From NCBI GenBank assembly GCA_005882215.1, contig VBCK01000116.1, positions 114,678 through 138,677 of the forward strand: a stretch of 24,000 nt of DNA, read 5' to 3'. Made by a program: the position numbers and the translations under genes. This DNA comes from Betaproteobacteria bacterium (GTDB taxonomy: Bacteria; Pseudomonadota; Gammaproteobacteria; Burkholderiales; Burkholderiaceae_F). The notes below the pieces were generated by a model, which did not search any database, was not told where the DNA came from, and was given only the letters and a program-made list of their open reading frames with translations. Positions 1 to 11,933 of the stretch are shown one piece after another (within the stretch, counting starts at the first letter, position 1; every line of letters starts with the position of its first letter).

Positions 1-131
1 CCACCTAACTTGCGCCGCGTTGAGCGAATAGAATCGCGTCGCGGCAGCCCGTGCCGCGATGCGCGCATTCACAGGCCCCGTCGCAGGTATTTTTCGTACT
101 ATTTGCACCGATCGGGATTTACGGGATCACC

Positions 132-893
132 ATGCGCGCCGTCATTCTGGCAGCGGGCTGCGGCTCACGTCTTCAGCAGGCGCAGGATCGGCAATTGCCC
201 AAGTGTCTGTTGCGATTTGGTGGCCCGACCCTGCTCCAGCGGCATCTGCACTTGCTGAAGAGGGTGGGCGTCGATGAGATCGTGCTGGCGCTCGGCTTTC
301 GACACGAACTCGTCAGGGCCGAGCTCGACCGCCTGGTCTGGCGACCGAGGCCCGAAATTATGCTGAACGATCGCTATGAGCTCGGAAGTGTGCTGACGGT
401 CCATACCGTCGCAGAAGCCATGACGCGCGGCGGTGATATCTTGCTCATGGACGCGGATGTGTTATATGACGAGCGCATCCTGACCGCCCTGGTTGCGGGC
501 CGAGGGCCGGTTAACCGCCTGTTGATCGATCGCGATTTCGAGGCCGGTGACGAGCCCGTCAAAGTGTGCATGCGGGATGGCCTACCGATCGAAATGCGCA
601 AGCAAATTCCGCCCGAGCTGAAATATGACTTCATCGGCGAGTCGGTCGGGTTCTTTCGCTTCGATGAGGCCGGCGCGCGCCGGCTTGCGGTCCTGGCGGC
701 AGCTTATGTTGAAGGCGCGCGCACCTTTGCGCCGCACGAGGAAGCTCTGCGCGATCTGCTGCTGGAGCGCAGCCAGATCTTCGACGTCGCCGACGTCACA
801 GGAGCACCGTGGATCGAGATCGATTTTCCGGATGATGTAGCACGGGCGTCGCTTGACGTGCTGCCGCAACTTCAGCCGCTCCCACCAGCATGA
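132..893 (+). CDS. Stand-alone nucleotidyltransferase (LicC/PntC-like phospho-alcohol/phosphonate cytidylyltransferase family)
   Basis: ORF 51..893 is trimmed to the ATG at 132, so the protein starts [14 protein letters not shown]. That glycine-rich NTP-binding loop sits at the extreme N-terminus in this fold. The DADVLYD and IEIDFPDD segments are typical of the family. The stop overlaps the next start (ATGA at 890-893). The substrate cannot be read from sequence. Confidence 0.8.
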
Positions 894-2668
894 AAATGAA
901 CGTGTCCGGTATTACCGGTGCCTCTGCGTGTGACAGGGCCGCCAGCGAGCAGGTCAACGCGACCCGCAGCGGAAGACTGCGCCAAATGCTTCGGAGCGAG
1001 CGGCTTGAGTTTCTTATGGAAGCGCACAATGGCTTGTCCGCGCGGATCGCCTGCGAGGCGGGATTTGACGGGATCTGGGCTTCCGGACTTGCAATCTCGG
1101 CTCAATTCGGTGTGCGCGACAACAACGAGGCGAGCTGGACGCAGGTCGTGGACATGCTGGAGTTCATGGCCGATGCCAGCGATCTGCCGATCCTGCTCGA
1201 CGGCGATACGGGCTACGGCAATTTCAACAACATGCGGCGCCTGGTGCGCAAGCTCGAACAGCGCGGGATTGCGGGCGTCTGCATTGAGGACAAGCAGTTT
1301 CCCAAAGCCAACAGTTTCTTGAACGGGGAACGCCAGCCGCTGGCCGATATTGGGGAGTTCTGCGGCAAGATAGCCGCCGGCAAGGACACCCAGATCGACC
1401 CGAACTTTTCGGTCGTCGCGCGAGTCGAAGCGCTGATCGCCGGTTGGAGCATGGATGAGGCACTGCGGCGAGCCGAAGCGTACCGACTGGCGGGTGCGGA
1501 CGCCATCCTGATCCACAGCAAACTTTCGAAGCCGGACGAAATCCTGACTTTTGCTCGGGAATGGGCGCGCCGCGCGCCGCTGGTGATCGTTCCGACGCGT
1601 TACTACAGCACACCGACCGACGTGTTTCGCGAAGCCGGAATCAGCGTCGTGATCTGGGCAAATCACCTGGTGCGCGCAGCCGCCGCCGCCATGCAGAGCG
1701 TGGCGAAGGAGATTTGCCAAAGCCAGACACTGGTGAACGTCGAGGATCGAATTGCATCGGTGGAAGAGATCTTCCGTCTGCAGAATGCCGAGGAGTATGC
1801 CGCTGCCGAACGTCTGTACCTGTCCGCCCGCTGCGCCACTCGGTCCGCGGTGGTCCTGGCCGCAAGTCGGGGCCAGGGACTCGAGTCGCTCACCACCGAT
1901 CGTCCGAAAGTCATGCTGCCTATCGCCGGAAGGCCATTGTTGCGCTGGCTGGTCGACAGCTTCAAGAAAGAGAACATTCACGACATCACGGTGGTCGGCG
2001 GTTATTGCGCCGGTGCGATCGATACGACCGGGATCAGGCTGGTCGTGAATGAGCGCTACGCCTGCACCGGGGAACTCGCATCATTGGCGTGTGCGCTCGA
2101 TGCGCTCGAATCGGAAACCGTGATCTCCTACGGCGACCTTCTGTATCGCAGTTACGTACTGCGCAATTTGGTCGATAGCCAGGCCGATTTCGCCGTGATC
2201 GTGGACTCGTCCCCTACCGGCGTCAGCAATCACACGGTGCGCGATTTCGCCTGTTGCTCCCGCAACGACGACCGCGGCTTGTTCGGAACGCCGGTACTTC
2301 TGCAACGCATCACCAGCGCGCCACCCGCGAAGCGCGAAGCATTCGAGGCGGCCGCGGAGCAGGACCCGCTCCAAGGCCGGTGGATCGGCCTGCTGAAAGT
2401 GAGCGATCGGGGACTGACTAAGCTTAAGAGCGTGTTGGCCGCGATGCAGGCGCGGGCGGACTTTGACGCGCTCGACGTGCCGGCACTACTGAACGCACTG
2501 GTGGCAGACGGCGCGGCGATCGAGGTCTTGTATGTGCATGGCCATTGGCGTGGCGTCAACGATCTCGAAGAATTTCATCGCGCCGTGGATTTTGCGCACG
2601 AGCAAATGCCGTTCGGACTCTCGGCGGACACTGCGTCGCCGGACGCAGGCAATGATTCAAGCGCATGA
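890..2668 (+). CDS. pepM: Phosphoenolpyruvate phosphomutase fused to a C-terminal nucleotidyltransferase domain
   Basis: The N-terminal ~295 aa match the PEP mutase/isocitrate lyase fold ([31 protein letters not shown]). They carry the PepM-diagnostic EDKxxxxxNS motif ([10 protein letters not shown], nt 1286-1315). The C-terminal ~290 aa begin [32 protein letters not shown], a nucleotidyltransferase signature. The ATG at 890 overlaps the upstream stop. Confidence 0.93.
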
Positions 2669-3845
2669 CTTCGTCGAGGCGGCGCGGCGGCGGCGCTTCG
2701 ACTGGTACGCCGGTGTTCCATGCTCATACCTGTCGCCATTCATCAACTATGCGCTGCAGGACCCGTCGCTGCGCTATTTGTCCATGGCCAATGAAGGCGA
2801 TGCGGTTGCGTTGATCGCGGGAGTTGCACTCGCGGGCGCCGGCGGCTTGCCCTTTGGGCGCGGCATCTCGATGATGCAGAACTCCGGGCTCGGCAATGCC
2901 GTCAGCCCGCTGACCTCCCTGACTTGGACCTTCCGCCTTCCCCAGCTGCTGATCGTTACCTGGCGTGGTCAGCCGGGTGTTCCTGACGAGCCCCAGCATT
3001 CCCTGATGGGTGCAATTACTCCGGCCATCCTTCGGGCCATGGAGATTCCTTGGGAATTGTTTCCGAGCGAAGTCGATGCGATCGGGCCGGCGCTGGATCG
3101 CGCCACGGCGCATATGGATGACAGTGGCCTGCCGTACGCTCTCCTGATGCAGAAGGGCACCGTCACCCCGTATCCGGTCAAGCCCGGGGCTTTCGCCGCC
3201 CCGGTGCGGCGGTCGGCAGCGCCAGCGGCTGTACTCATGCCTCACCGCGTTGCGCCGGAGGCGAGGCCGTCAAGACATGATGCCTTGCGCGTGGTCGTGG
3301 ACCGTTCGCCCGTCGCGACGAGCGTCGTGTTGGCGTCGACTGGATTTTGCGGGCGCGAACTGTATTCCGTCAACGATCGTCCAAATCACCTCTACATGGT
3401 CGGCTCTATGGGCTGCGTCGTGCCGTTGGCGCTCGGATTGGCTCTGGCTCGCCCGGATCTGCGGGTGATTGCACTGGATGGCGACGGTGCAGCATTGATG
3501 CGGATGGGGGCGTTCGGCAGCGTAGGCGCGTATGGCCCACCGAATCTGCTGCATCTGTTATTGGACAACGGAGTGCACGAATCGACCGGCGGCCAGGCAA
3601 CGGTGTCTCCCCTCGTTTCGTTTGCCGAAGTGGCTGCGGCCTGCGGCTATGCCTCGGCGCTCGAAACGGATGATCTGGCGCAAGTGGCTGCATGGCTGGA
3701 TGCTCCGCCGCTCGATGGATCAAGGTTCGCCCGCTTGCTGACGCGCGCGGCTCGGTCTGACGACCTGCCGCGTCCGTCCATAAGACCCGTCGAGGTCAAG
3801 ACGCGCTTGATGCAACACTTCGCCCCTGCCGCCGGCATCCGGTGA
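2652..3845 (+). CDS. ppd: Phosphonopyruvate decarboxylase (ThDP-dependent)
   Basis: ORF 2532..3845 is trimmed to the ATG at 2652 ([27 protein letters not shown]), which matches the family N-terminus. A ThDP-binding motif is present (GDGAALM...[14 protein letters not shown]). The start overlaps the pepM 3' end by 17 nt. The gene sits directly after pepM, as in characterised AEP clusters. Confidence 0.9.
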
Positions 3846-4921
3846 TGCTCCTGCTCAATCCCGGGCCCGTCACGCTGACGGAACGTGTGCGCCGAAGTCT
3901 GACGCAACCGGATTTGTGTCATCGCGAAGGCGAGTTTTTTGACTTGCAGGATGAAGCCCGCGAGCGGCTTTTGGCGACTTATGCGCTTGACCCGGTCGAA
4001 TGGAGTGCCGTGTTGATGACGGCGTCCGGTACCGGAGCGGTTGAAAGCATGCTGGCGGCCCTGGTGCCTGAGTCGGGTCGTTTGCTGGTTGTCGAAAACG
4101 GCGTGTATGGCGAGCGGATCGCTGAAATTTGTGCGCAGTACCGGCTTGCGTACGCTCGAACGGCTGGCCCCTGGATGAAGCCGCTCGACCTCGATGCAAT
4201 CCGCTCGTACCTCGATGTGCCGAGCGGGAAGGCACGATTCACGCACATGGCCGTCGTGCACCATGAGACCACGACGGGAAGGCTCAATGACCTGAGGCCG
4301 CTGGGCCAGCTGTGCCGGGCGCACGGAATGAACTTGCTCGTGGACGGCGTCAGCAGTTTCGGCGCTGAAGCGCTCGATTTTACCGACAGCAGCCTGTTGG
4401 CAGTGGCGGCCACTGCGAACAAATGTTTGCATGGAGTGCCAGGCGCCTCGTTTGTCATCGTCCGGCGCAGTGCCCTTGCTCAGGCAACCCGGCGCACCTA
4501 TTACCTCGATCTTGGCCGCCTCTCGCGTCTGCAAGATCAGCGCGATACGCCATTCACGCCGGCAGTGCACGCATATTATGGTTTAGTCGAGGCCTTGCGC
4601 GAGTTCGCAGAGCAAGGTGGCCGCCTCGCGCGCTATCGACATTATGCGGCGCTGGCCGAGCAGGTACGCTCAGGGCTTGCAGCGTTAGGAGTCGAATCGG
4701 CACTCCCCGCTGGGCAGTGGTCGGTCGTTTTGCGCGCGTATCGCTTACCGCCCGGCCTCAGCTATGCCACGCTGCATGATGGCTTGAAGGCCGAAGGCTT
4801 CGTGATTTACGCGGGCCAGGGGGATTTGTCGCAGACATTGTTTCGTATCTCGACGATGGGCAATCTGACCTCGGCCGACATGGACCGGTTCCTGAAGTGC
4901 TTTAGCCGGCTGCTGCGGTGA
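3842..4921 (+). CDS. phnW: 2-aminoethylphosphonate:pyruvate aminotransferase (class V PLP aminotransferase)
   Basis: The N-terminus LLLNPGPVTLTERVRRSL and the PLP-lysine context ATANKCLHGVPG are typical of PhnW/AEP transaminases. The start is GTG 3842 or ATG 3845, and both overlap the ppd stop (GTGATG). It is the third step of the pepM-ppd-transaminase trio. Confidence 0.88.
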   Translation: MMLLLNPGPVTLTERVRRSLTQPDLCHREGEFFDLQDEARERLLATYALDPVEWSAVLMTASGTGAVESMLAALVPESGRLLVVENGVYGERIAEICAQYRLAYARTAGPWMKPLDLDAIRSYLDVPSGKARFTHMAVVHHETTTGRLNDLRPLGQLCRAHGMNLLVDGVSSFGAEALDFTDSSLLAVAATANKCLHGVPGASFVIVRRSALAQATRRTYYLDLGRLSRLQDQRDTPFTPAVHAYYGLVEALREFAEQGGRLARYRHYAALAEQVRSGLAALGVESALPAGQWSVVLRAYRLPPGLSYATLHDGLKAEGFVIYAGQGDLSQTLFRISTMGNLTSADMDRFLKCFSRLLR

Positions 4922-4988
4922 CGCGAGCCGTTCGCAACGGTGTCATCCGCTGCGGTCGGCGCGCACCATCACCGGAAGTGGCTGAGCG

Positions 4989-6332
4989 ATGCCCCGTGAT
5001 CTGACGCCTCGAGCCAAATGCCGCAGCGCGGCCGCTTTTTCGTTCGATCTATTCCGGGCTTATCTGGCCACGCTGGTGATGGCGGCCCCCTGCTGGTCGG
5101 AGCCCACGGGACCCGCCGCGGATGTGCACGGACCGGAGGCAAGCGGTGCGCAGCCTTCTGCGCCTTCCGCCGGCTTCTGGAAGTGGTTCGATCCGGAAAC
5201 CGCGCCGTTCCTTCCTGTTCCCGAGATCGCGACCAATCCAAACGGCGGCACGACGATTGGCATTCTTCCGGTCTGGCTGCGCACCGATGAACATCACGTC
5301 ATCCGTCGAATCATCGCGCCGGATTTTCTGCACAGTCCCTATTTCGGGTTTGGCTTCCATGCGCGCATGTATTCCTACCCCTCCCAGGACGAGCAGTGGT
5401 CCCTGCTGGCAGGGGCTAAGCAGCGAGTCGAACGCGAGTTCGACGCCGAGTACCAGAGCGGACGCTCGCGCAAGGAACGCTGGTCCTTTGCCGGCAGCCT
5501 GATTTACGACCGAGACGGGACGCCTCGCTTCTATGGAATCGGCAATGAATCGCCTCAAAGCGAGCAAACGAGCTTCACCGAGGAACAGAGCCTGGTGCAG
5601 GCGCAGATTGGTCTGAACCTCAGCAACGCCTGGCAGCTGCTTTACACGGGACGCGTGCGCATCGTCGATGTGCTACCGGGCACACTGCCGGGCATCCCTT
5701 CGCTCGAGAGTCGATTCGGAAGCATTGAGCTGGGCACCAGCCACGAAGCGCTCAATCGCCTGTCCATCGTCTATGACACCCGGAATGACTTGACGGTACC
5801 CAATCGAGGGACAAAATGGATTGCCTATGGGGGCGTTGCCAGTCGAGGGGGTGTGCTCAACGATTCTCTGTACAGTGAAGCGGGCATCGACGGCCGTGCC
5901 TTCTTGCCGATTGCACGCGAAACCATCCTGGTGGCACATCTGTCTTTGCGCTATTTGCCGACCGCGATTGACCCACCCTTTTGGGCGCTCAGCAGCCTCG
6001 GCGGAGCCCGAAGCGAAACAGGAGGCGAGCAGCCGTTGCGCGGTTTTGGCGCGGGCCGGTTTTACGATCGCAATTCCTTTTCCTCCAGCGTCGAGGTGCG
6101 ACAAAGGGCGTGGGAGTTCAACGCGGTCTCCACTCATGTCGAGTTGGAAGTGGCGCCATTCGTCGATGTCGGCCGGGTATTCGCGATGGGCGCGTCGCCC
6201 GTTGCACAGCTGCACAAGGTCGGCGGCCTGGCCTTCCGCGCAATCGCACGGCCTTTTGTCGTCGGCTACGTCGATATCGGCTTTGGCAGTGAGGGCCCGG
6301 CCGTGTTCAGCGGTATCTACTACCCGTTTTGA
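4989..6332 (+). CDS. Omp85/BamA-family (bacterial surface antigen) outer-membrane beta-barrel, no POTRA domains evident
   Basis: Barrel-family segments are present: YDTRNDLTVPNRG, LGGARSETGGEQPLRGFGAGRF and VAPFVDVGRVF. The C-terminus ends ...GIYYPF, an aromatic terminal residue typical of OMPs. The hydrophobic N-terminal region is not a textbook signal peptide, so the start is uncertain. Only ~70 aa precede the barrel-like region. Confidence 0.72.
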   Translation: MPRDLTPRAKCRSAAAFSFDLFRAYLATLVMAAPCWSEPTGPAADVHGPEASGAQPSAPSAGFWKWFDPETAPFLPVPEIATNPNGGTTIGILPVWLRTDEHHVIRRIIAPDFLHSPYFGFGFHARMYSYPSQDEQWSLLAGAKQRVEREFDAEYQSGRSRKERWSFAGSLIYDRDGTPRFYGIGNESPQSEQTSFTEEQSLVQAQIGLNLSNAWQLLYTGRVRIVDVLPGTLPGIPSLESRFGSIELGTSHEALNRLSIVYDTRNDLTVPNRGTKWIAYGGVASRGGVLNDSLYSEAGIDGRAFLPIARETILVAHLSLRYLPTAIDPPFWALSSLGGARSETGGEQPLRGFGAGRFYDRNSFSSSVEVRQRAWEFNAVSTHVELEVAPFVDVGRVFAMGASPVAQLHKVGGLAFRAIARPFVVGYVDIGFGSEGPAVFSGIYYPF

Positions 6333-6490
6333 TATGGCCGTTCGTGTCAAGAGGGGATAGAGTGAAGAACAATGCCAGTAGAATTAAAAACCCACAAAAA
6401 CAACCCCCACCCGGTGGCTGCTTCTGCCCGCGGCTACGACCGGGATCCCAAAGACCACTGTCCGAGATCTGACTCGCAACGATCAGAAAC

Positions 6491-7630
6491 ATGCCTGCAT
6501 TCGTCGCCCATGCCGGTGTGGCGCTGGCCGTCATCGCCGCTGCGTATTCGACCTGCGCCGCACTGCTGCTGTTCCGCTGTCGTGAGACCTTGACGGCTTC
6601 GGGCCCCGAGCGTCCAGCCGTGTCGATCCTGAAGCCACTGTGCGGCGCCGAGCCGCGCCTGCTGGATTGTCTGCGTTCGTTCGCACGCCAGGATTACCCG
6701 CACATGCAGATCGTGTTCGGCGTGCGCGAGGCGGCCGACCCGGCCGTCGAGGTCGTCCGGCAGCTGCAGCGCGAATTTCCCGCGCTGGATGCCGCGCTGG
6801 TCGTCGATCCCGGCGTGCACGGCGAGAACCTGAAGGCGAGCAACCTGATCAACATGCTGCCGCATGCGCGTCATTCGGTCCTGGTGATCTCGGACAGCGA
6901 TGTGCGGGTCGCGCCGGGTTACCTCGAGGCGACGGTCGCGGCGCTGGCGCCGGCGCAGGTCGGCGCGGTGACCTGCCTGTACCGGGGGCGCGCCGGAACC
7001 GGGCTGTGGTCGCGGGTGGCGACGCTGTTCATCAACGACTGGTACTTCCCGGCGGTGCTGATCTCACTGGCGCTAGGCGACCGCTCGTTCGCCTCGGGCG
7101 TCACGATCGCCCTGCGCCGTCAGACGCTGGAGGCGATCGGGGGCTTGCAGGTGACAGCGGACCACGTGGCGGACGACTGGCTGATCGGCGAGCGGGTAAG
7201 GCGGCTTGGACTGAAAACCGTTCTGAGCCCGGTCGTGGTCCAGACCGAAGTGGCGGACGAGGGTTTTCGCGCTCACGCGCATCGCGAGCTGCGCTGGATG
7301 CGAACGATCCGCGCGGTGGCCCCGCTCGGCTACGCATTCATGGGCTTTTCGATCTTTCTGCCGATCGCGCTGCTTGGCGTGCTGCTCGCCTGGCCTTCTC
7401 CGTGGGCCTTGGGGCTGGGCATTTTGGCCCTCGTAAACCGGGTAGGTATTCACTGGGTGCAGCGGCGCCGCGGCGCAGCGAGACTGGGGTACGATTGGAT
7501 CCTGATCCCGCCCCGCGACGGCCTGCTGGTGGCGGTGTGGGTCGCTGGATTCCTGGGCCGGGGCATCACTTGGCGGGGCCGGCGGTATCGTGTGCGCGGC
7601 GGCGGAGCCTTGAGGCTGCTCGGCGGCTGA
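6491..7630 (+). CDS. hpnI: Hopanoid-associated family-2 glycosyltransferase HpnI (ceramide-glucosyltransferase-like)
   Basis: An N-terminal TM helix is followed by VSILKPLCGAEPRLLDCLRSFARQDYPHMQIVFGV and ISDSDV (DxD-like). C-terminal TM segments follow. It lies immediately upstream of hpnJ/K/L homologues, which supports the specific call. Confidence 0.85.
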   Translation: MPAFVAHAGVALAVIAAAYSTCAALLLFRCRETLTASGPERPAVSILKPLCGAEPRLLDCLRSFARQDYPHMQIVFGVREAADPAVEVVRQLQREFPALDAALVVDPGVHGENLKASNLINMLPHARHSVLVISDSDVRVAPGYLEATVAALAPAQVGAVTCLYRGRAGTGLWSRVATLFINDWYFPAVLISLALGDRSFASGVTIALRRQTLEAIGGLQVTADHVADDWLIGERVRRLGLKTVLSPVVVQTEVADEGFRAHAHRELRWMRTIRAVAPLGYAFMGFSIFLPIALLGVLLAWPSPWALGLGILALVNRVGIHWVQRRRGAARLGYDWILIPPRDGLLVAVWVAGFLGRGITWRGRRYRVRGGGALRLLGG

Positions 7631-7681
7631 AGAAAAACCGATGGCCGGGCCATTCTGCCGGCCGCTGCTGGACTGAATCCG

Positions 7682-9109
7682 ATGGCACTGAAGACCGTAT
7701 TTCTGCACCCCCCCTCGTTCGACGGCTTCGACGGCGGCGCCGGGGCGCGCTATCAGGCCAAACGCGAGGTGCGCTCGTTCTGGTTTCCGACCTGGCTTGC
7801 CCAGCCGGCCGCGCTGGTGCCCGACAGCGTGCTGATCGACGCGCCAACCGACGGGCTGTCACTCGAGGACGTGATGCCGCGTGTGAAGGATGCGGACCTG
7901 GTGATCATGCACACCAGCTCGCCGTCGTTCGCCAGCGATGCGAGGGTCGCCGAGCAGCTGAAGGCCGCCAATCCGCAGATGATGATCGGCCTGGTGGGCG
8001 CCAAGGTGGCGGTCGATCCGGACGGCTCGCTCGAGACCGCGCCCGCCGTGGACTTCGTGTGTCGCGAGGAGTTCGACTACACCTGCCTGGAGGTGTCCGA
8101 GGGCAAGCCGCTCGGGCAGATCGCCGGACTGTGCTATCGCGGCGCCGACGGCAAGCTGATCCATACGCCGCCGCGTGCCCCGATCGAGGACATGGACGCG
8201 CTGCCGTGGGTGACGCCGGTGTACCGGCGCGATCTGAAAGTCGAGAACTACTTCATCGGCTACCTGAAGCATCCCTACGTGTCGTTCTACACCGGCCGCG
8301 GATGCAAGTCGCGTTGCACGTTCTGCCTGTGGCCGCAGACGGTCGGCGGCCATCGCTACCGGGTGCGCAGCCCCGCCAGCGTGATCGAGGAGGTCGCCTG
8401 GATCCAGAAAAACATGCCGCAGGTGCGCGAGATCTTTTTCGACGACGACACCTTCACCGACCTGCTTCCCCGCGCCGAGGAGATCGCGCGCGGCCTGGGC
8501 AAGCTGGGCGTGACCTGGTCGTGCAACGCCAAGGCCAATGTTCCTTACGACACGCTGAAAGTGATGCGCGACAACGGACTGCGGCTGCTGTTGGTCGGCT
8601 ACGAAACCGGGTCAGACCAGATCCTTCGCAACATCAAGAAGGGAATGCGCACGGATTTTGCGCGCCGCTTCACGCGCGATTGCCGCGAGCTGGGCATCAC
8701 GATTCACGGCACTTTCATCCTGGGTCTGCCGGGCGAGACGCGCGAGACGATCGAGCAGACGATCCGCTTCGCCAAGGAGATCAATCCGCACACGATCCAG
8801 GTCTCGCTGGCCGCCCCGTATCCGGGTACCGAGCTGTACCGGGATGCGGTCGCCAACGGGTGGCTCAGCAGCCCGGATCCTTCGCAACTGGTCGATTCGT
8901 CCGGCACGCAGTTGATCCCGCTGAGCTACCCGCATCTGAAGGCCGACGAGATCTACCACGCGCTGGAGCGCTTCTACAAGAGCTTCTATTTCCGGCCCGG
9001 CAAGATCATCGAACTGGTCGCCGAGATGTCCACCAGCTGGGAGATGACGCAACGCCGCCTGCGCGAGGGGGTGGAGTTCATGCGCTTCCTGCACCGCCGC
9101 GCCGTCTGA
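7682..9109 (+). CDS. hpnJ: Hopanoid-associated B12-binding radical SAM protein HpnJ
   Basis: The N-terminus is MALKTVFLHPPSFDGFDGGAGARYQAKREVRSFWFPTWLA. The radical-SAM cluster motif is CKSRCTFC (CX3CX2C). At 475 aa the length fits the family, and the hpnI/K/L context agrees. Confidence 0.88.
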   Translation: MALKTVFLHPPSFDGFDGGAGARYQAKREVRSFWFPTWLAQPAALVPDSVLIDAPTDGLSLEDVMPRVKDADLVIMHTSSPSFASDARVAEQLKAANPQMMIGLVGAKVAVDPDGSLETAPAVDFVCREEFDYTCLEVSEGKPLGQIAGLCYRGADGKLIHTPPRAPIEDMDALPWVTPVYRRDLKVENYFIGYLKHPYVSFYTGRGCKSRCTFCLWPQTVGGHRYRVRSPASVIEEVAWIQKNMPQVREIFFDDDTFTDLLPRAEEIARGLGKLGVTWSCNAKANVPYDTLKVMRDNGLRLLLVGYETGSDQILRNIKKGMRTDFARRFTRDCRELGITIHGTFILGLPGETRETIEQTIRFAKEINPHTIQVSLAAPYPGTELYRDAVANGWLSSPDPSQLVDSSGTQLIPLSYPHLKADEIYHALERFYKSFYFRPGKIIELVAEMSTSWEMTQRRLREGVEFMRFLHRRAV

Positions 9110-9185
9110 CTCTGACTGGCGTATAAGTGCGCGGGGCTCGATCGCCCCTCGCCCGCGCAGCGGGACAGGGGGCGGAGGCGGGGTT

Positions 9186-9238
9186 GCGCGAAGCACTGCT
9201 TCGCGCCGCCGGAGCCGGCGCGCCTTGCAAGGCGCGCC
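9186..9238. repeat. Two adjacent perfect GC-rich palindromes/hairpins in the hpnJ-hpnK spacer
   Basis: 9186-9206 is GCGCGAAGCA-C-TGCTTCGCGC (10-nt arms). 9217-9238 is GGCGCGCCTTGCAAGGCGCGCC, a 22-nt perfect palindrome. I verified both by hand reverse-complementing. A weaker GGGGC-N6-GCCCC hairpin lies at 9133-9148. No T-tract follows any of them. Confidence 0.7.
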
Positions 9239-9254
9239 GTGGGCGGGGGTAAAG

Positions 9255-10151
9255 GTGGCGGCCACGCGGCACCTGATCATCACCGCCGACGATTTCGGCC
9301 TGGACCTGGCGATCAATGAGGCGGTCGAGCAGGCCTACACCGGAGGCGTGCTGACGGCTGCCAGCTTGATGGTGGGACAGCCGGCCGCTGGCGACGCGGT
9401 CGAGCGCGCGCGACGCCTTCCGGGTTTGCGAATCGGTCTGCACGTGACGCTGACCGGCGCGCGCCCGCTGCTGGCGCCGCAGCAGCTTCCCGACCTGGTC
9501 GATGCTGCCGGCCGCTTGCCCGCGGACCTGGCCGGACTCGGCTGGCGGTTGGCGGCAAGTCCGCGGGCGCGCCACCAGGCCGAGCAGGAGATCGGTGCGC
9601 AATTTCAGGCGTTCGCCAACGCCGGGCTGGCGCTCGATCACGTCAACGCGCATCAGCACTACCACCTGCATCCGTTCGTGCTGGACCGGATCCTGAGCAT
9701 CGGCCGCGGTTTCGGCATGCGCGCGGTGCGCGTGCCATTCGAACCGCTGTGGCTGGCGCGCGCGGTCCCGGCCAGCGCCTCCCGTGCGGGGCGGGTGTCG
9801 GCGCTCGGCTGGGCGCTGGGCACGGGCTGGATGCGGCGCCGGCTGCTTCGCGCGGGGCTGGCCTGCAACGATGTGCTGTTCGGGCTGCGCTGCAGCGGGC
9901 GTCTGGATGAGGCGACGCTGTGCGACGCGCTGGAACGGCTGCGGCCGGGAATTGCCGAGGTGTACTTGCACCCCGCGACACGCTGCGGTCCGCGCGAACA
10001 GTCGGCCGGCGTCGGGCCGCACGCGAGCGAGGAACTCGAGGCCTTGATGAGTCCGCGGGTGCGGCAACGGCTGCAGGCGCTGAACGCCTCGGCGGGCGGT
10101 TTCTCGGACATTCCGGGCGAAGCGCCCGCGCTGCGCGGAGCGGCGGCGTGA
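9255..10151 (+). CDS. hpnK: YdjC-family carbohydrate deacetylase, hopanoid-associated HpnK
   Basis: HLIITADDFGLDLAINEAVEQAYTGGVLTAASLMV is the YdjC N-terminal signature. I prefer the GTG at 9255 (preceded by GGGGG at 9244-9248) over the track's TTG at 9225. The TTG lies inside a 22-bp perfect palindrome. The start is therefore uncertain by ~30 nt. The stop overlaps the hpnL start (GTGA at 10148-10151). Confidence 0.8.
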   Translation: MAATRHLIITADDFGLDLAINEAVEQAYTGGVLTAASLMVGQPAAGDAVERARRLPGLRIGLHVTLTGARPLLAPQQLPDLVDAAGRLPADLAGLGWRLAASPRARHQAEQEIGAQFQAFANAGLALDHVNAHQHYHLHPFVLDRILSIGRGFGMRAVRVPFEPLWLARAVPASASRAGRVSALGWALGTGWMRRRLLRAGLACNDVLFGLRCSGRLDEATLCDALERLRPGIAEVYLHPATRCGPREQSAGVGPHASEELEALMSPRVRQRLQALNASAGGFSDIPGEAPALRGAAA

Positions 10152-11149
10152 AACGCATCGCCTATGTGCTCGGCCTGGCCGGCCTGGCCGCGGCCATCGC
10201 GCTGGTTGCGCGCGCTGGCTGGCATGCGGTACTGGATGCCCTTGCGGCCGCTGGCTTGCCGTTGCTGTGGCTGGTGCCGCTGCGCGTGATCCCGATCGCG
10301 TTGGATGCGATGGGGTGGCGCGTGCTGCTCGCGCCGCGCGACGTGCACCATCGCGCCCGCTGGCCGGTGCTGGTGGCAACGGCGATGGTGCGCGAGGCGG
10401 TCAATCGCCTGTTGCCGGTCGCCGGGGTCGGCGGCGAGCTGGTCGGGATCCGGATCCTGGTTCGCCGCGGGCTGGAACCGGCGCCGGTGACGTCGAGCGT
10501 GATCGCCGAGGTGGTGCTGACATTGCTGAGCCTGGTGCTGTTCGCCGCGCTTGGCCTCGCGCTGCTGGGGGTGTCGACCGGGGGAGCGGGCTCGCTCGAC
10601 TCGATCATCATCAGCGTTTTACTGGCCTTGCCGCTTCCGCTGGCTGGCCTGTGGCTGATCAGCGAAGGACGCCTCGTCGCCTGGCTGCGGCGCCTTGCTT
10701 ACCTGGTGACCGGCAGCACCGGCCTGGCACCGCCGTGGCTGCAGTCGATGCCGGCGTTCGAGACAGAATTGTCGGCGCTGGCGCGGCGCCGGGGCCGGCT
10801 GGTGCTGACCATGTTGTTCCAGTTGGCCGCAATGACGGCGGGCGCCTCGGAAGTGTGGCTTGCGCTAAGACTGCTCGGCCACCCGGTCGGTTTCGAGACC
10901 GCGCTGATCATCGAAAGCGTCGTGCTGTTCGTGCGCAACCTGGCCTTCGCGGTTCCGGCCGCGCTTGGCGCACAGGAGGCCGGCATCGTGCTGATCTGCG
11001 CGGCCGTCGGTCTGGATCAGGAGGTGGCGATCGGCCTGGCCCTGGCCAAGCGGATGCGCGAAGTGCTGTTCGGCCTGCCGGCGCTGCTGGGCTGGAATCT
11101 GTGGGAAAGCATGCAAGCTTCGCCGGCGGTCGCCGGGCGTTCGAAGTAA
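10148..11149 (+). CDS. hpnL: Hopanoid-associated polytopic membrane protein HpnL (UPF0104 / lysyl-PG-synthase TM-region, flippase-like family)
   Basis: ORF 9920..11149 is trimmed to the GTG at 10148 (VKRIAYVLGLAGLAAAIALVARAGW...). The protein has multiple hydrophobic helices, and the LPVAGVGGELVGIRIL segment is typical of the family. It is translationally coupled to hpnK. Confidence 0.78.
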   Translation: MKRIAYVLGLAGLAAAIALVARAGWHAVLDALAAAGLPLLWLVPLRVIPIALDAMGWRVLLAPRDVHHRARWPVLVATAMVREAVNRLLPVAGVGGELVGIRILVRRGLEPAPVTSSVIAEVVLTLLSLVLFAALGLALLGVSTGGAGSLDSIIISVLLALPLPLAGLWLISEGRLVAWLRRLAYLVTGSTGLAPPWLQSMPAFETELSALARRRGRLVLTMLFQLAAMTAGASEVWLALRLLGHPVGFETALIIESVVLFVRNLAFAVPAALGAQEAGIVLICAAVGLDQEVAIGLALAKRMREVLFGLPALLGWNLWESMQASPAVAGRSK

Positions 11150-11165
11150 ACCCTCGGGATCCGGC

Positions 11166-11933
11166 TCAAGGCCGAACAGCTGGGGATTCCAGCGCCATGC
11201 CCCGCGCGCGCCACATCAGGAACAGTTCGAGGTTCACGAGTTCCGGTGCTCCGTAGTCGTAGGGCTCGGAGCGCACGCCGCTGATGCAGGCGCGCAGCCT
11301 GCGCTGCAGCGAGCCCAGCCCCTGCCACTCAAGCCGATAGAGCGGATATCCGGTCGGATGGGCTTGGGGAATCAGGCTGCCCGCCAGGTGCTTGCCCCAG
11401 TTGTCGTCGTGGCACTGGTTGCAGGCGAGATTGAGCTGGCCGCGGCGGCGCTGGAATTGCTCGCGGCCGGCGGCCAGAAACGGCTCGCTGCGTGGGTCAG
11501 CGCCGATTTCGATCCGCAGGCCGCGCGATTGCTGCGCGACGTAAGCGGTGATCGCCAGCAGTTGCCGGCTTTCGAACGCGAATGCAGAGGCGCGCTGTCG
11601 AATCGTGCGACACAGGTTGATGCGCTGCTCCAGGTCGAGGGGGCGTCCGGCCGCGACCTCGAACGCGGGGTAACGGGCGGCGACCCCCTTCATGCTGACG
11701 CCGGCGTCACCGTGGCAGTCCGCGCAAGCGCGCGCACCCGGGTTGGGTCGCTCGTTCCAAAGGCCCTTGCCCTCCATCACCCAGAGCATCGCCGGATTGG
11801 CGGCGTCATCGTCCTGGATAGCCCGCGTCTCCGGCCTCATCAATTCGTAGCCCGAATGGCGCTCGGACGGCGGGATCTCGCCGGCGATGGCGGCAAGGGC
11901 AAAGGCGAATACAGAGAAGCCGGCGAGCCGCAT
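11166..11933 (-). CDS. soxA: Dihaem c-type cytochrome SoxA
   Basis: ORF 11166..11990 is trimmed to the ATG at 11933 (MRLAGFSVFAFALAAIAG signal peptide), which overlaps the soxZ stop (TAATG). There are two CxxCH motifs (CADCH, CNQCH) and the conserved distal Cys context RLRACISGVRSEPY. The C-terminus LELFLMWRARGMALESPAVRP is SoxA-like. Confidence 0.88.
   Translation of the reverse strand: MRLAGFSVFAFALAAIAGEIPPSERHSGYELMRPETRAIQDDDAANPAMLWVMEGKGLWNERPNPGARACADCHGDAGVSMKGVAARYPAFEVAAGRPLDLEQRINLCRTIRQRASAFAFESRQLLAITAYVAQQSRGLRIEIGADPRSEPFLAAGREQFQRRRGQLNLACNQCHDDNWGKHLAGSLIPQAHPTGYPLYRLEWQGLGSLQRRLRACISGVRSEPYDYGAPELVNLELFLMWRARGMALESPAVRP

Follow-up and report, generated by a model that had tools for sequence, protein, structure and literature searches.

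A phosphonate head-group cassette beside hpnIJKL and its recurrent association with hopanoid synthesis genes in bacteria

A window of 24,000 nucleotides (the whole stretch of DNA analysed here; contig C283, VBCK01000116.1, positions 114678-138677) from the genome of a Betaproteobacteria bacterium (G000) carries genes for the synthesis of 2-aminoethylphosphonate (AEP) directly in front of the hopanoid genes hpnI, hpnJ, hpnK and hpnL. Our analysis suggests that the window contains two separate lipid head-group modules in tandem, and that the product of the phosphonate cassette is most simply an AEP-bacteriohopanepolyol, the acceptor being read from comparative genomics; we hold this reading with a little better than even confidence. 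By its sequence, the phosphonate unit is a cassette of eight genes with a predicted donor-forming enzyme, transferase, flippase-like protein and outer-membrane barrel of its own. The gene set is a known cluster type without an identified product, and what is new here is the added barrel and the adjacency to hpnIJKL. The original prediction, made from the letters alone, had proposed a phosphonate-decorated hopanoid or envelope lipid. Its core idea of a functional link between phosphonate and hopanoid genes was right, as the cassette is nearly confined to genomes positive for squalene-hopene cyclase (SHC) and HpnH. A new class of phosphonate-bearing hopanoid lipids is strongly supported but unproven.

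ORF (open reading frame) listing and profile searches give nine genes in positions 132-11149 of the window, all intact and all on the + strand, just as had been claimed for the run from the phosphonate cassette through the barrel into hpnI-J-K-L. Three further same-strand genes lie in the 3 kb upstream of the window, and window bases 1-31 are the last 31 nt of the third of them, the gene of an HpnL paralogue. The genes of the two modules are listed below, with negative positions counted upstream of the window.

-2435 to -1785 (C283:112242-112892), + strand: CDP-alcohol phosphotransferase (CDP-OH; PF01066), 216 aa, with an intact signature motif
about -1704 to -964, + strand: 2OG/Fe(II) oxygenase of BesD/HalD fold, between the CDP-alcohol phosphotransferase and HpnL paralogue genes
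-967 to 31 (C283:113710-114708), + strand: cassette HpnL-family flippase-like gene (TIGR03476, 290.8 bits, cut-off 195.65)
132-893, + strand: free-standing PntC-like cytidylyltransferase (MobA-type, NTP_transf_3); nearest solved structure the Treponema denticola PntC fusion 6pd1 (E 3e-8, full length)
890-2668, + strand: PEP mutase with a C-terminal PntC nucleotidyltransferase domain, PepM-PntC (TIGR02320, 398 bits)
2652-3845, + strand: phosphonopyruvate decarboxylase, Ppd (TIGR03297, 409 bits)
3842-4921, + strand: AEP transaminase (2-aminoethylphosphonate aminotransferase; TIGR03301, 359.1 bits, cut-off 360.8)
4989-6332, + strand: Omp85-superfamily barrel without POTRA domains (PF01103), the last gene of the cassette
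6491-7630, + strand: HpnI, bacteriohopanetetrol N-acetylglucosamine glycosyltransferase (TIGR03472, 407.9 bits, cut-off 310)
7682-9109, + strand: HpnJ, B12-binding radical SAM enzyme for the cyclitol ether (TIGR03471, 795.7 bits, cut-off 577.6)
9225-10151, + strand: HpnK, YdjC-type deacetylase (TIGR03473, 317.4 bits, cut-off 232.6)
10148-11149, + strand: canonical HpnL, flippase-like membrane protein (TIGR03476, 268.8 bits, cut-off 195.65)

Is the cassette tied to hopanoid synthesis in other genomes as well? The 80 best loci with relatives of PepM-PntC were taken from species-representative genomes, with up to 10 kb of flank on each side. Of the 80 carrier genomes, 76 have SHC; the remaining four are metagenome-assembled genomes (MAGs) of 2.1-3.9 Mb, two of which have hpnH, hpnA and hpnB beside the cassette. 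The background rate is 32 SHC-positive genomes out of 300 (11%), in an even sample of the phylum with a completeness of 90% or more. HpnH, the protein that begins the C35 side chain, occurs in 48 of 50 carrier genomes and as a split copy in one more. The same 300 genomes contain two clusters of the cassette type, both in SHC-positive genomes, and among the 12 genomes with other pepM cluster types only two have SHC, which is the background rate. The pattern is consistent across Gammaproteobacteria (including Burkholderiales), Alphaproteobacteria and Cyanobacteria. One genome, G249, was considered as a counter-example, having fusion-type PepM and no SHC, and was rejected: its two clusters hold B12-radical-SAM genes, and the genes for CDP-OH, HpnL, the oxygenase and the free PntC are all absent from them. 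On contigs C23 and C177 of this genome (L130, L131), two PepM-PntC fusions about 49% identical to the one in the window stand beside genes of B12-binding radical SAM proteins; these are a different phosphonate cluster type, possibly a P-methylating one.

The 80 loci were further scanned with the hopanoid proteins of this genome, counting SHC or HpnA/B/H/I/J/K as a hopanoid gene. Such a gene lies within 10 kb in 32 loci, and in 20 of these 32 it is no more than 500 bp from the cassette or inside it. The chance expectation is about 2% per locus by a rough analytic estimate (for a 5-Mb genome with about three hopanoid clusters and a capture span of 30 kb), so the adjacency recurs far beyond chance. 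The original prediction was to fall if pepM and hpn genes showed no co-localisation beyond this genome; co-localisation is now seen in several lineages. There are seven types of junction, which differ by lineage. In Steroidobacteraceae, shc-hpnG-hpnA lies upstream of the cassette; in Pandoraea and Pararobbsia, ispH-hpnH lies about 7 kb downstream; Ralstonia pickettii has hpnH, ispH, hpnA and hpnB upstream, and a Beijerinckiaceae MAG has hpnG and hpnH upstream. In Nostocales (L093, L102, L087), hpnJ-hpnK-hpnI directly precede the CDP-OH gene, while in the genus of the window (G000, G002) the cassette leads into hpnIJKL. The seventh type, in a set of uncultured Gammaproteobacteria, is a full interleaving with the hopanoid cluster. 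For example, a closed gammaproteobacterial chromosome of 5.7 Mb has the order sqs, hpnG, CDP-OH transferase, hpnA, hpnL-like, 2OG oxygenase, free PntC, PepM-PntC fusion, Ppd, AEPT, dxs, hpnH, hpnB, hpnM, mlaA, sqs being squalene synthase.

The closest neighbour of the CDP-OH transferase gene is hpnA (L073:5727-7324; also L024, L028, L046, L022 and L138). In the gammaproteobacterial set hpnA is directly downstream of it with a 4-nt overlap, and in Steroidobacteraceae directly upstream. HpnA may prepare the acceptor. A fusion of HpnA with the transferase was not found, PF01066 being present in 0 of the 120 best homologues of the L073 HpnA.

Which protein could transfer the head group? The original prediction had seen no AEP transferase in the window; this is literally true, but a gene for a CDP-alcohol phosphatidyltransferase, of the same orientation, is found 1.8-2.4 kb upstream of it, and the accompanying guess that an upstream gene outside the window could take part was right. 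The motif of this family, D-x2-D-G-x2-A-R-x8-G-x3-D-x3-D, is intact in its product (DHTDGELARISGKSSRIGHWYDLASD at residue 69). The nearest solved structures are AF2299 (4o6m) and IPCT-DIPPS (4mnd), with low similarity (35 bits). A transferase of LicD or sulfatase type, or a glycosyl transferase encoded by the cassette, was not found in the window and the 3 kb of cassette in front of it. With its three genes just upstream of the window included, the cassette has the complete gene content of the Group 1 phosphonolipid or Burkholderiales_CDP-OH type. The second upstream gene encodes an oxygenase with W-H-Y-D where the BesD halogenase has W-H-W-G, and with a conserved distal His, in a weak alignment (E 0.29); among solved relatives there are marginal matches only, BesD being at E 0.29. 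Since H-Y-D replaces H-W-G in this weak alignment, the enzyme is read as a hydroxylase. A radical halogenase of BesD/HalD type was tried and rejected, as such an enzyme has H-x-G/A in place of the carboxylate ligand and, as far as the weak alignment goes, Asp is present here.

HpnL had also been named as possibly involved. Both paralogues consist of the PF03706 transmembrane domain only, which is flippase-like; since there is no synthase domain, HpnL is not plausible as an AEP transferase, and a transferase as well as an HpnL paralogue come with the cassette itself. Identity between the paralogues is 31%, and the cassette copy scores above the canonical one of the window on TIGR03476 (290.8 vs 268.8 bits). 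Each hpnL gene follows enzymes for an amine-bearing head group, HpnI/K/J in one case and the CDP-OH transferase in the other. From this and the PF03706-only architecture, the HpnL proteins are read as translocators, one per module, and by analogy they would move head-group-modified hopanoids. HpnL is reported to be enriched near shc, with unclear function, in a synteny study of hopanoid genes (bioRxiv 10.1101/2025.07.29.667474).

How did the cassette come to stand in front of hpnI? Within the genus, HpnJ is found in 7 of 7 species and the PepM fusion in 2 of 7, namely G000 and G002. In congeners G001, G004 and G006, hpnI is directly abutted by the gene of a RACo-type protein, and in G000 and G002 the eight cassette genes, Omp85 included, sit between the two. 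This gene forms the left border of the cassette:

C283:109847-111943: RACo-type corrinoid activation protein (Fer2, RACo linker, middle and C-terminal domains)

The RACo-type protein is 91-94% conserved in the congeners. In an alignment of the junctions with three cassette-free congeners, homology stops on either side within the intergenic DNA; the junctions showed no repeats, tRNA or integrase. The GC content of the cassette is 0.628, against 0.687-0.692 in the flanks and a genome mean of 0.662 ± 0.020 in 8.8-kb windows. In an unrooted maximum-likelihood tree of PepM with 80 rows, G000 and G002 fall inside a clade of 26 rows with 100/100 support. The other rows of this clade are Steroidobacteraceae or uncultured Gamma-/Proteobacteria, and it is separate from the other Burkholderiaceae (Pandoraea, Cupriavidus, Ralstonia, Caballeronia and Pararobbsia). 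Transfer of the cassette from a Steroidobacteraceae-like lineage would be the natural reading of these relationships, its direction not being proven. The two copies in the genus share 68-84% protein identity, and the flanking hpnI, hpnK and hpnL 71-84%; because the divergence of the cassette is about that of its flanks, the block has long been in the genus and is no recent arrival. Among the 19 genera sampled from its own family, SHC is found in this genus only, and so are hpnJ and the cassette. This is a natural experiment, in which a cassette from another class has settled beside the hopanoid genes of the only hopanoid-producing genus of the family sample.

The barrel had been taken as part of one run into the hpn genes. 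It belongs to the cassette instead: its gene is missing together with the cassette in the congeners, and elsewhere among the 80 loci it is found only in cassette copies of the Steroidobacteraceae type. The family is highly conserved, with 60-78% identity across more than 1800 homologues, and in 6 of 8 contexts examined (L021, L022, L136 and L138 among them) the gene stands beside the core of CDP-OH, oxygenase, HpnL and PntC genes. The AlphaFold2 model of the protein, of medium confidence (pLDDT 65.8, pTM 0.63), has a signal helix, about 40 disordered residues and an all-beta barrel at residues 75-443. Foldseek matches it to the barrels of BamA, TamA and Sam50 (E 5e-9 to 1e-7, 10-13% identity). 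An insertase of the BamA/TamA type was considered and rejected, as neither the model nor the Pfam hits contain POTRA domains and the NCBIfam Omp85_fam score is 96.7 against a cut-off of 200. Our best guess, a speculative one, is that the barrel handles the lipid at the outer membrane.

Some variants of the cassette were also observed. Two metagenome contigs carry a five-gene core (CDP-OH transferase, HalD-like oxygenase, HpnL-like, PntC-like and Omp85 genes) without pepM, ppd and transaminase (L021:5338-11308, L136:5695-11302); a Rieske/VanA_C oxygenase gene precedes the core in both, and in L137 the Rieske and Omp85 genes alone remain side by side. From the existence of this pepM-less variant it follows that the core is not strictly a phosphonate device. 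A search of the 300 phylum genomes with the 2OG oxygenase returned just one full cassette, already known, and no further core. After Ppd, no AEP transaminase was found by tblastn in L028, L046 and L059 (Steroidobacteraceae-type) or in L049 and L057 (Caballeronia), and in the first three the Omp85 gene directly follows ppd. In these copies either the transaminase is replaced or a different phosphonate is made. In L072, L078, L079, L092 and L097 the PepM match is about 2.39 kb and is abutted by a free PntC hit, which suggests PntC-PepM-PntC triple fusions.

Put together, these genes give a scenario for the pathway. PepM, Ppd and the transaminase, all with strong family matches, would make AEP, which the HxD 2OG oxygenase probably hydroxylates. 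One or both PntC cytidylyltransferases would form CMP-AEP, given their homology to characterised PntC; activity of PntC on AEP is established for the Treponema and Atopobium enzymes (PMC6697681). The small DIPPS/AF2299-like CDP-alcohol phosphotransferase would move the phosphonyl head group from CMP-AEP to a lipid hydroxyl. By analogy with the flippase domain of MprF, the cassette HpnL paralogue may then carry the product across the inner membrane to its outer leaflet, and the POTRA-less barrel might act at the outer membrane. The acceptor would be an extended hopanoid, most simply through the terminal hydroxyl of bacteriohopanetetrol. The genes that regularly accompany the cassette are shc and hpnH, and by analogy a side-chain hydroxyl of bacteriohopanetetrol would be the simplest acceptor, its terminal polyol resembling glycerol. 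The hpnIJKL genes are the genus-wide module for glucosamine and cyclitol-ether hopanoids, with an HpnL of its own, and this module would be a neighbour of the cassette rather than a step in its pathway.

Could the product be something else? The original prediction favoured the amino-sugar and cyclitol hydroxyls made by HpnI, HpnK and HpnJ as the site of AEP attachment, with HpnL possibly helping. The cassette does directly abut hpnI here and in the congener G002, and the Nostocales have hpnJ-hpnK-hpnI directly before the CDP-OH gene. Yet of 50 carriers only 25 have HpnJ. Those in which it was not found include Ralstonia pickettii, Pandoraea horticolens and two Cupriavidus, as well as the closed gammaproteobacterial chromosome and several Nostoc and Tolypothrix genomes. 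Because half of the carriers, complete or high-quality genomes included, lack HpnJ, these hopanoids are not the general acceptor. Moreover, the junction partners in other lineages are shc, hpnG, hpnA, hpnH and hpnB, the hpnIJKL genes are unchanged in congeners without the cassette, and HpnL has no transferase domain. We consider attachment to these hydroxyls in this genome very improbable, while some further decoration of HpnI/J/K products is conceivable here and in Nostocales. An accidental landing of a mobile block, whose product is unrelated to hopanoids and is attached to a glycan, lipopolysaccharide or protein, would fit an indel of foreign origin, and many pepM clusters elsewhere make phosphonoglycans. 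But the transferases of such systems are the ones not found in the window and its upstream cassette, and neither seven types of hopanoid junction nor 95% co-occurrence with SHC is predicted by accident. This explanation is improbable as well, if slightly less so.

An ordinary phosphonolipid deserves more weight, although we still regard it as unlikely. Here AEP would be placed on diacylglycerol to give a phosphonate analogue of phosphatidylethanolamine, and the link with hopanoids would be only functional or regulatory, in that the two lipids remodel one membrane. Such a product is what the literature predicts for the cluster type, as the Burkholderiales_CDP-OH pepM cluster families were equated with the Group 1 phosphonolipids of Yu et al. 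2013 (PMC8942020, Microb Genom 2022). The family of the transferase has lipid-forming members with glycerolipid substrates, and 48 of the 80 loci, many of them cut by contig ends, have no hopanoid gene within 10 kb. On the other side, diacylglycerol is an acceptor available in every bacterium, yet 76 of 80 carriers have SHC compared with 11% in the background. The cassette is interleaved with the side-chain genes hpnG, hpnA, hpnH and hpnB in several lineages, its flippase-like gene belongs to the HpnL family, and phosphonolipids have not been characterised from this cluster group, for which hopanoids go unmentioned (PMC8942020).

Some points that weigh against an AEP-bearing hopanoid should be noticed beside the unlinked loci. 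The acceptor is deduced from genomic context alone, and the normal acceptors of CDP-alcohol phosphotransferases that have a CDP-head-group donor are diacylglycerol or small alcohols. The literature searched, including a full-text search pairing aminoethylphosphonate with bacteriohopane, yielded no phosphorus-containing hopanoid, and none is known from the well-studied Burkholderia. The carrier lineages are related, so that the counts overstate independence; no p-value is given, because the lineages are not independent samples. The proposed role of the Omp85 barrel is without precedent, and the core variant without pepM exists. Weighing both sides, we still prefer AEP-bacteriohopanepolyol as the product. 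A wider proposal is more tentative, and we would put it just short of an even chance. It holds that the Burkholderiales_CDP-OH family, the commonest uncharacterised phosphonate cluster family, makes a new lipid class, bacteriohopanepolyols esterified with AEP or 1-hydroxy-AEP, and not a glycerophosphonolipid; that the HpnL proteins are dedicated flippases of amine-headed hopanoids; and that the Omp85 barrel handles the lipid at the outer membrane in the Steroidobacteraceae-type version.

For the genes of the window itself, some further details are given here. The free PntC-like protein and the nucleotidyltransferase domain fused to PepM are only 24% identical. In the PepM-PntC fusion, the PF12804 domain covers residues 320-440 and the diagnostic EDKxxxxxNS motif is at residue 133; the protein matches the mussel PEP mutase structure 1m1b with 421 bits. 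The score of the AEP transaminase is 1.7 bits below the curated cut-off of its family. The start of pepM overlaps the stop of the free nucleotidyltransferase gene by 4 nt, ppd overlaps the pepM stop by 17 nt and the transaminase gene overlaps ppd by 4 nt. As several genes overlap by 4-17 nt, translational coupling within the phosphonate part is suggested. The gaps of 67 nt before the Omp85 gene, 158 nt before hpnI and 51 nt between hpnI and hpnJ had been given correctly; that between hpnJ and hpnK, given as about 145 nt, is 115-145 nt depending on the start of hpnK, which is either TTG at 9225 or a site further downstream. The GTG start of hpnL overlaps the hpnK stop. In a consensus scan for promoters and terminators over positions 1-11400, the gaps of 67 nt and 158 nt showed no signal exceeding that of shuffled sequence. 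The hpnIJKL module is nothing unusual in itself, all four proteins being above the curated NCBIfam cut-offs.

Downstream of the nine genes a Sox-like operon lies on the opposite strand. The contig of the window also carries shc (777 bits) and hpnH (529 bits), the hopanoid genes being arranged as ispH-hpnH at 61.7-64.3 kb and hpnA-hpnB-shc-hpnG at 77.7-84.2 kb of C283, where ORF calling in the 58-97 kb region was GC3-guided. In C283:58-89 kb (L109, L110), H4MPT-linked C1 genes (mch, fae, TIGR03123) are scattered among these two groups, and two Ser/Thr kinase genes stand directly 3' of hpnH.

What would such a lipid mean? The link joins two fields, that of phosphonates, with a cluster type lacking a product, and that of hopanoids, where hpnL, hpnA and hpnB lack assigned roles; the functions of these three genes are not established (bioRxiv 10.1101/2025.07.29.667474; PMC12583986). 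The word-stem "phosphon" is absent from both of these hopanoid surveys. From the other direction, a genome survey of Acetobacteraceae noted frequent linkage of terpenoid genes to the mutase gene and suggested an undiscovered terpene-phosphonate (PMC8776678). If real, the lipid would add a class to the known membrane lipids and be a phosphorus sink that resists phosphatases, and it could serve as the precursor of a new biomarker. Being zwitterionic, a phosphonate hopanoid may well be missed by the customary hopanoid work-ups with acetylation or periodate, which could explain why it has gone unseen. Omp85 as a partner of the cassette was previously unremarked.

How does the system compare with known ones? 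The Burkholderiales_CDP-OH type has a seven-gene core and 318 neighbourhoods, 36% of the surveyed RefSeq pepM neighbourhoods (PMC8942020). The common core is PepM-PntC, Ppd, AEPT, the 2OG/Fe(II) oxygenase, a second PntC, the CDP-alcohol phosphatidyltransferase and the LPG_synthase_TM protein. The gene order of the copy described here is that of Pandoraea, Cupriavidus, Ralstonia and Caballeronia, but this copy differs by an eighth gene, the POTRA-less Omp85 shared only with Steroidobacteraceae-type copies, and by its hpnIJKL neighbour. Positions 6491-11149 are the same module as hpnI-J-K(-L) of Burkholderia cenocepacia (Schmerk et al. 2015, cited in PMC5462960), and the genome also has shc, hpnH, hpnG, hpnA and hpnB on the same contig; new in comparison are the cassette neighbour and the second HpnL paralogue. 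The barrel shares its fold and PF01103 with BamA, TamA and Sam50, but has no POTRA and is encoded in a lipid head-group operon. The HpnL proteins consist of PF03706, the flippase part of MprF, and are found beside an enzyme that adds an amine-bearing head group, but unlike MprF they have no synthase domain. With the CDP-choline/ethanolamine:diacylglycerol phosphotransferases of eukaryotes and Treponema and the archaeal IPCT/DIPPS enzymes (4mnd, 4o6m), the cassette shares the logic of a cytidylyltransferase paired with a CDP-alcohol phosphotransferase and a head group carried on CMP. Here the donor would be the phosphonate CMP-AEP, and the proposed acceptor a triterpenoid polyol in place of diacylglycerol or inositol phosphate.

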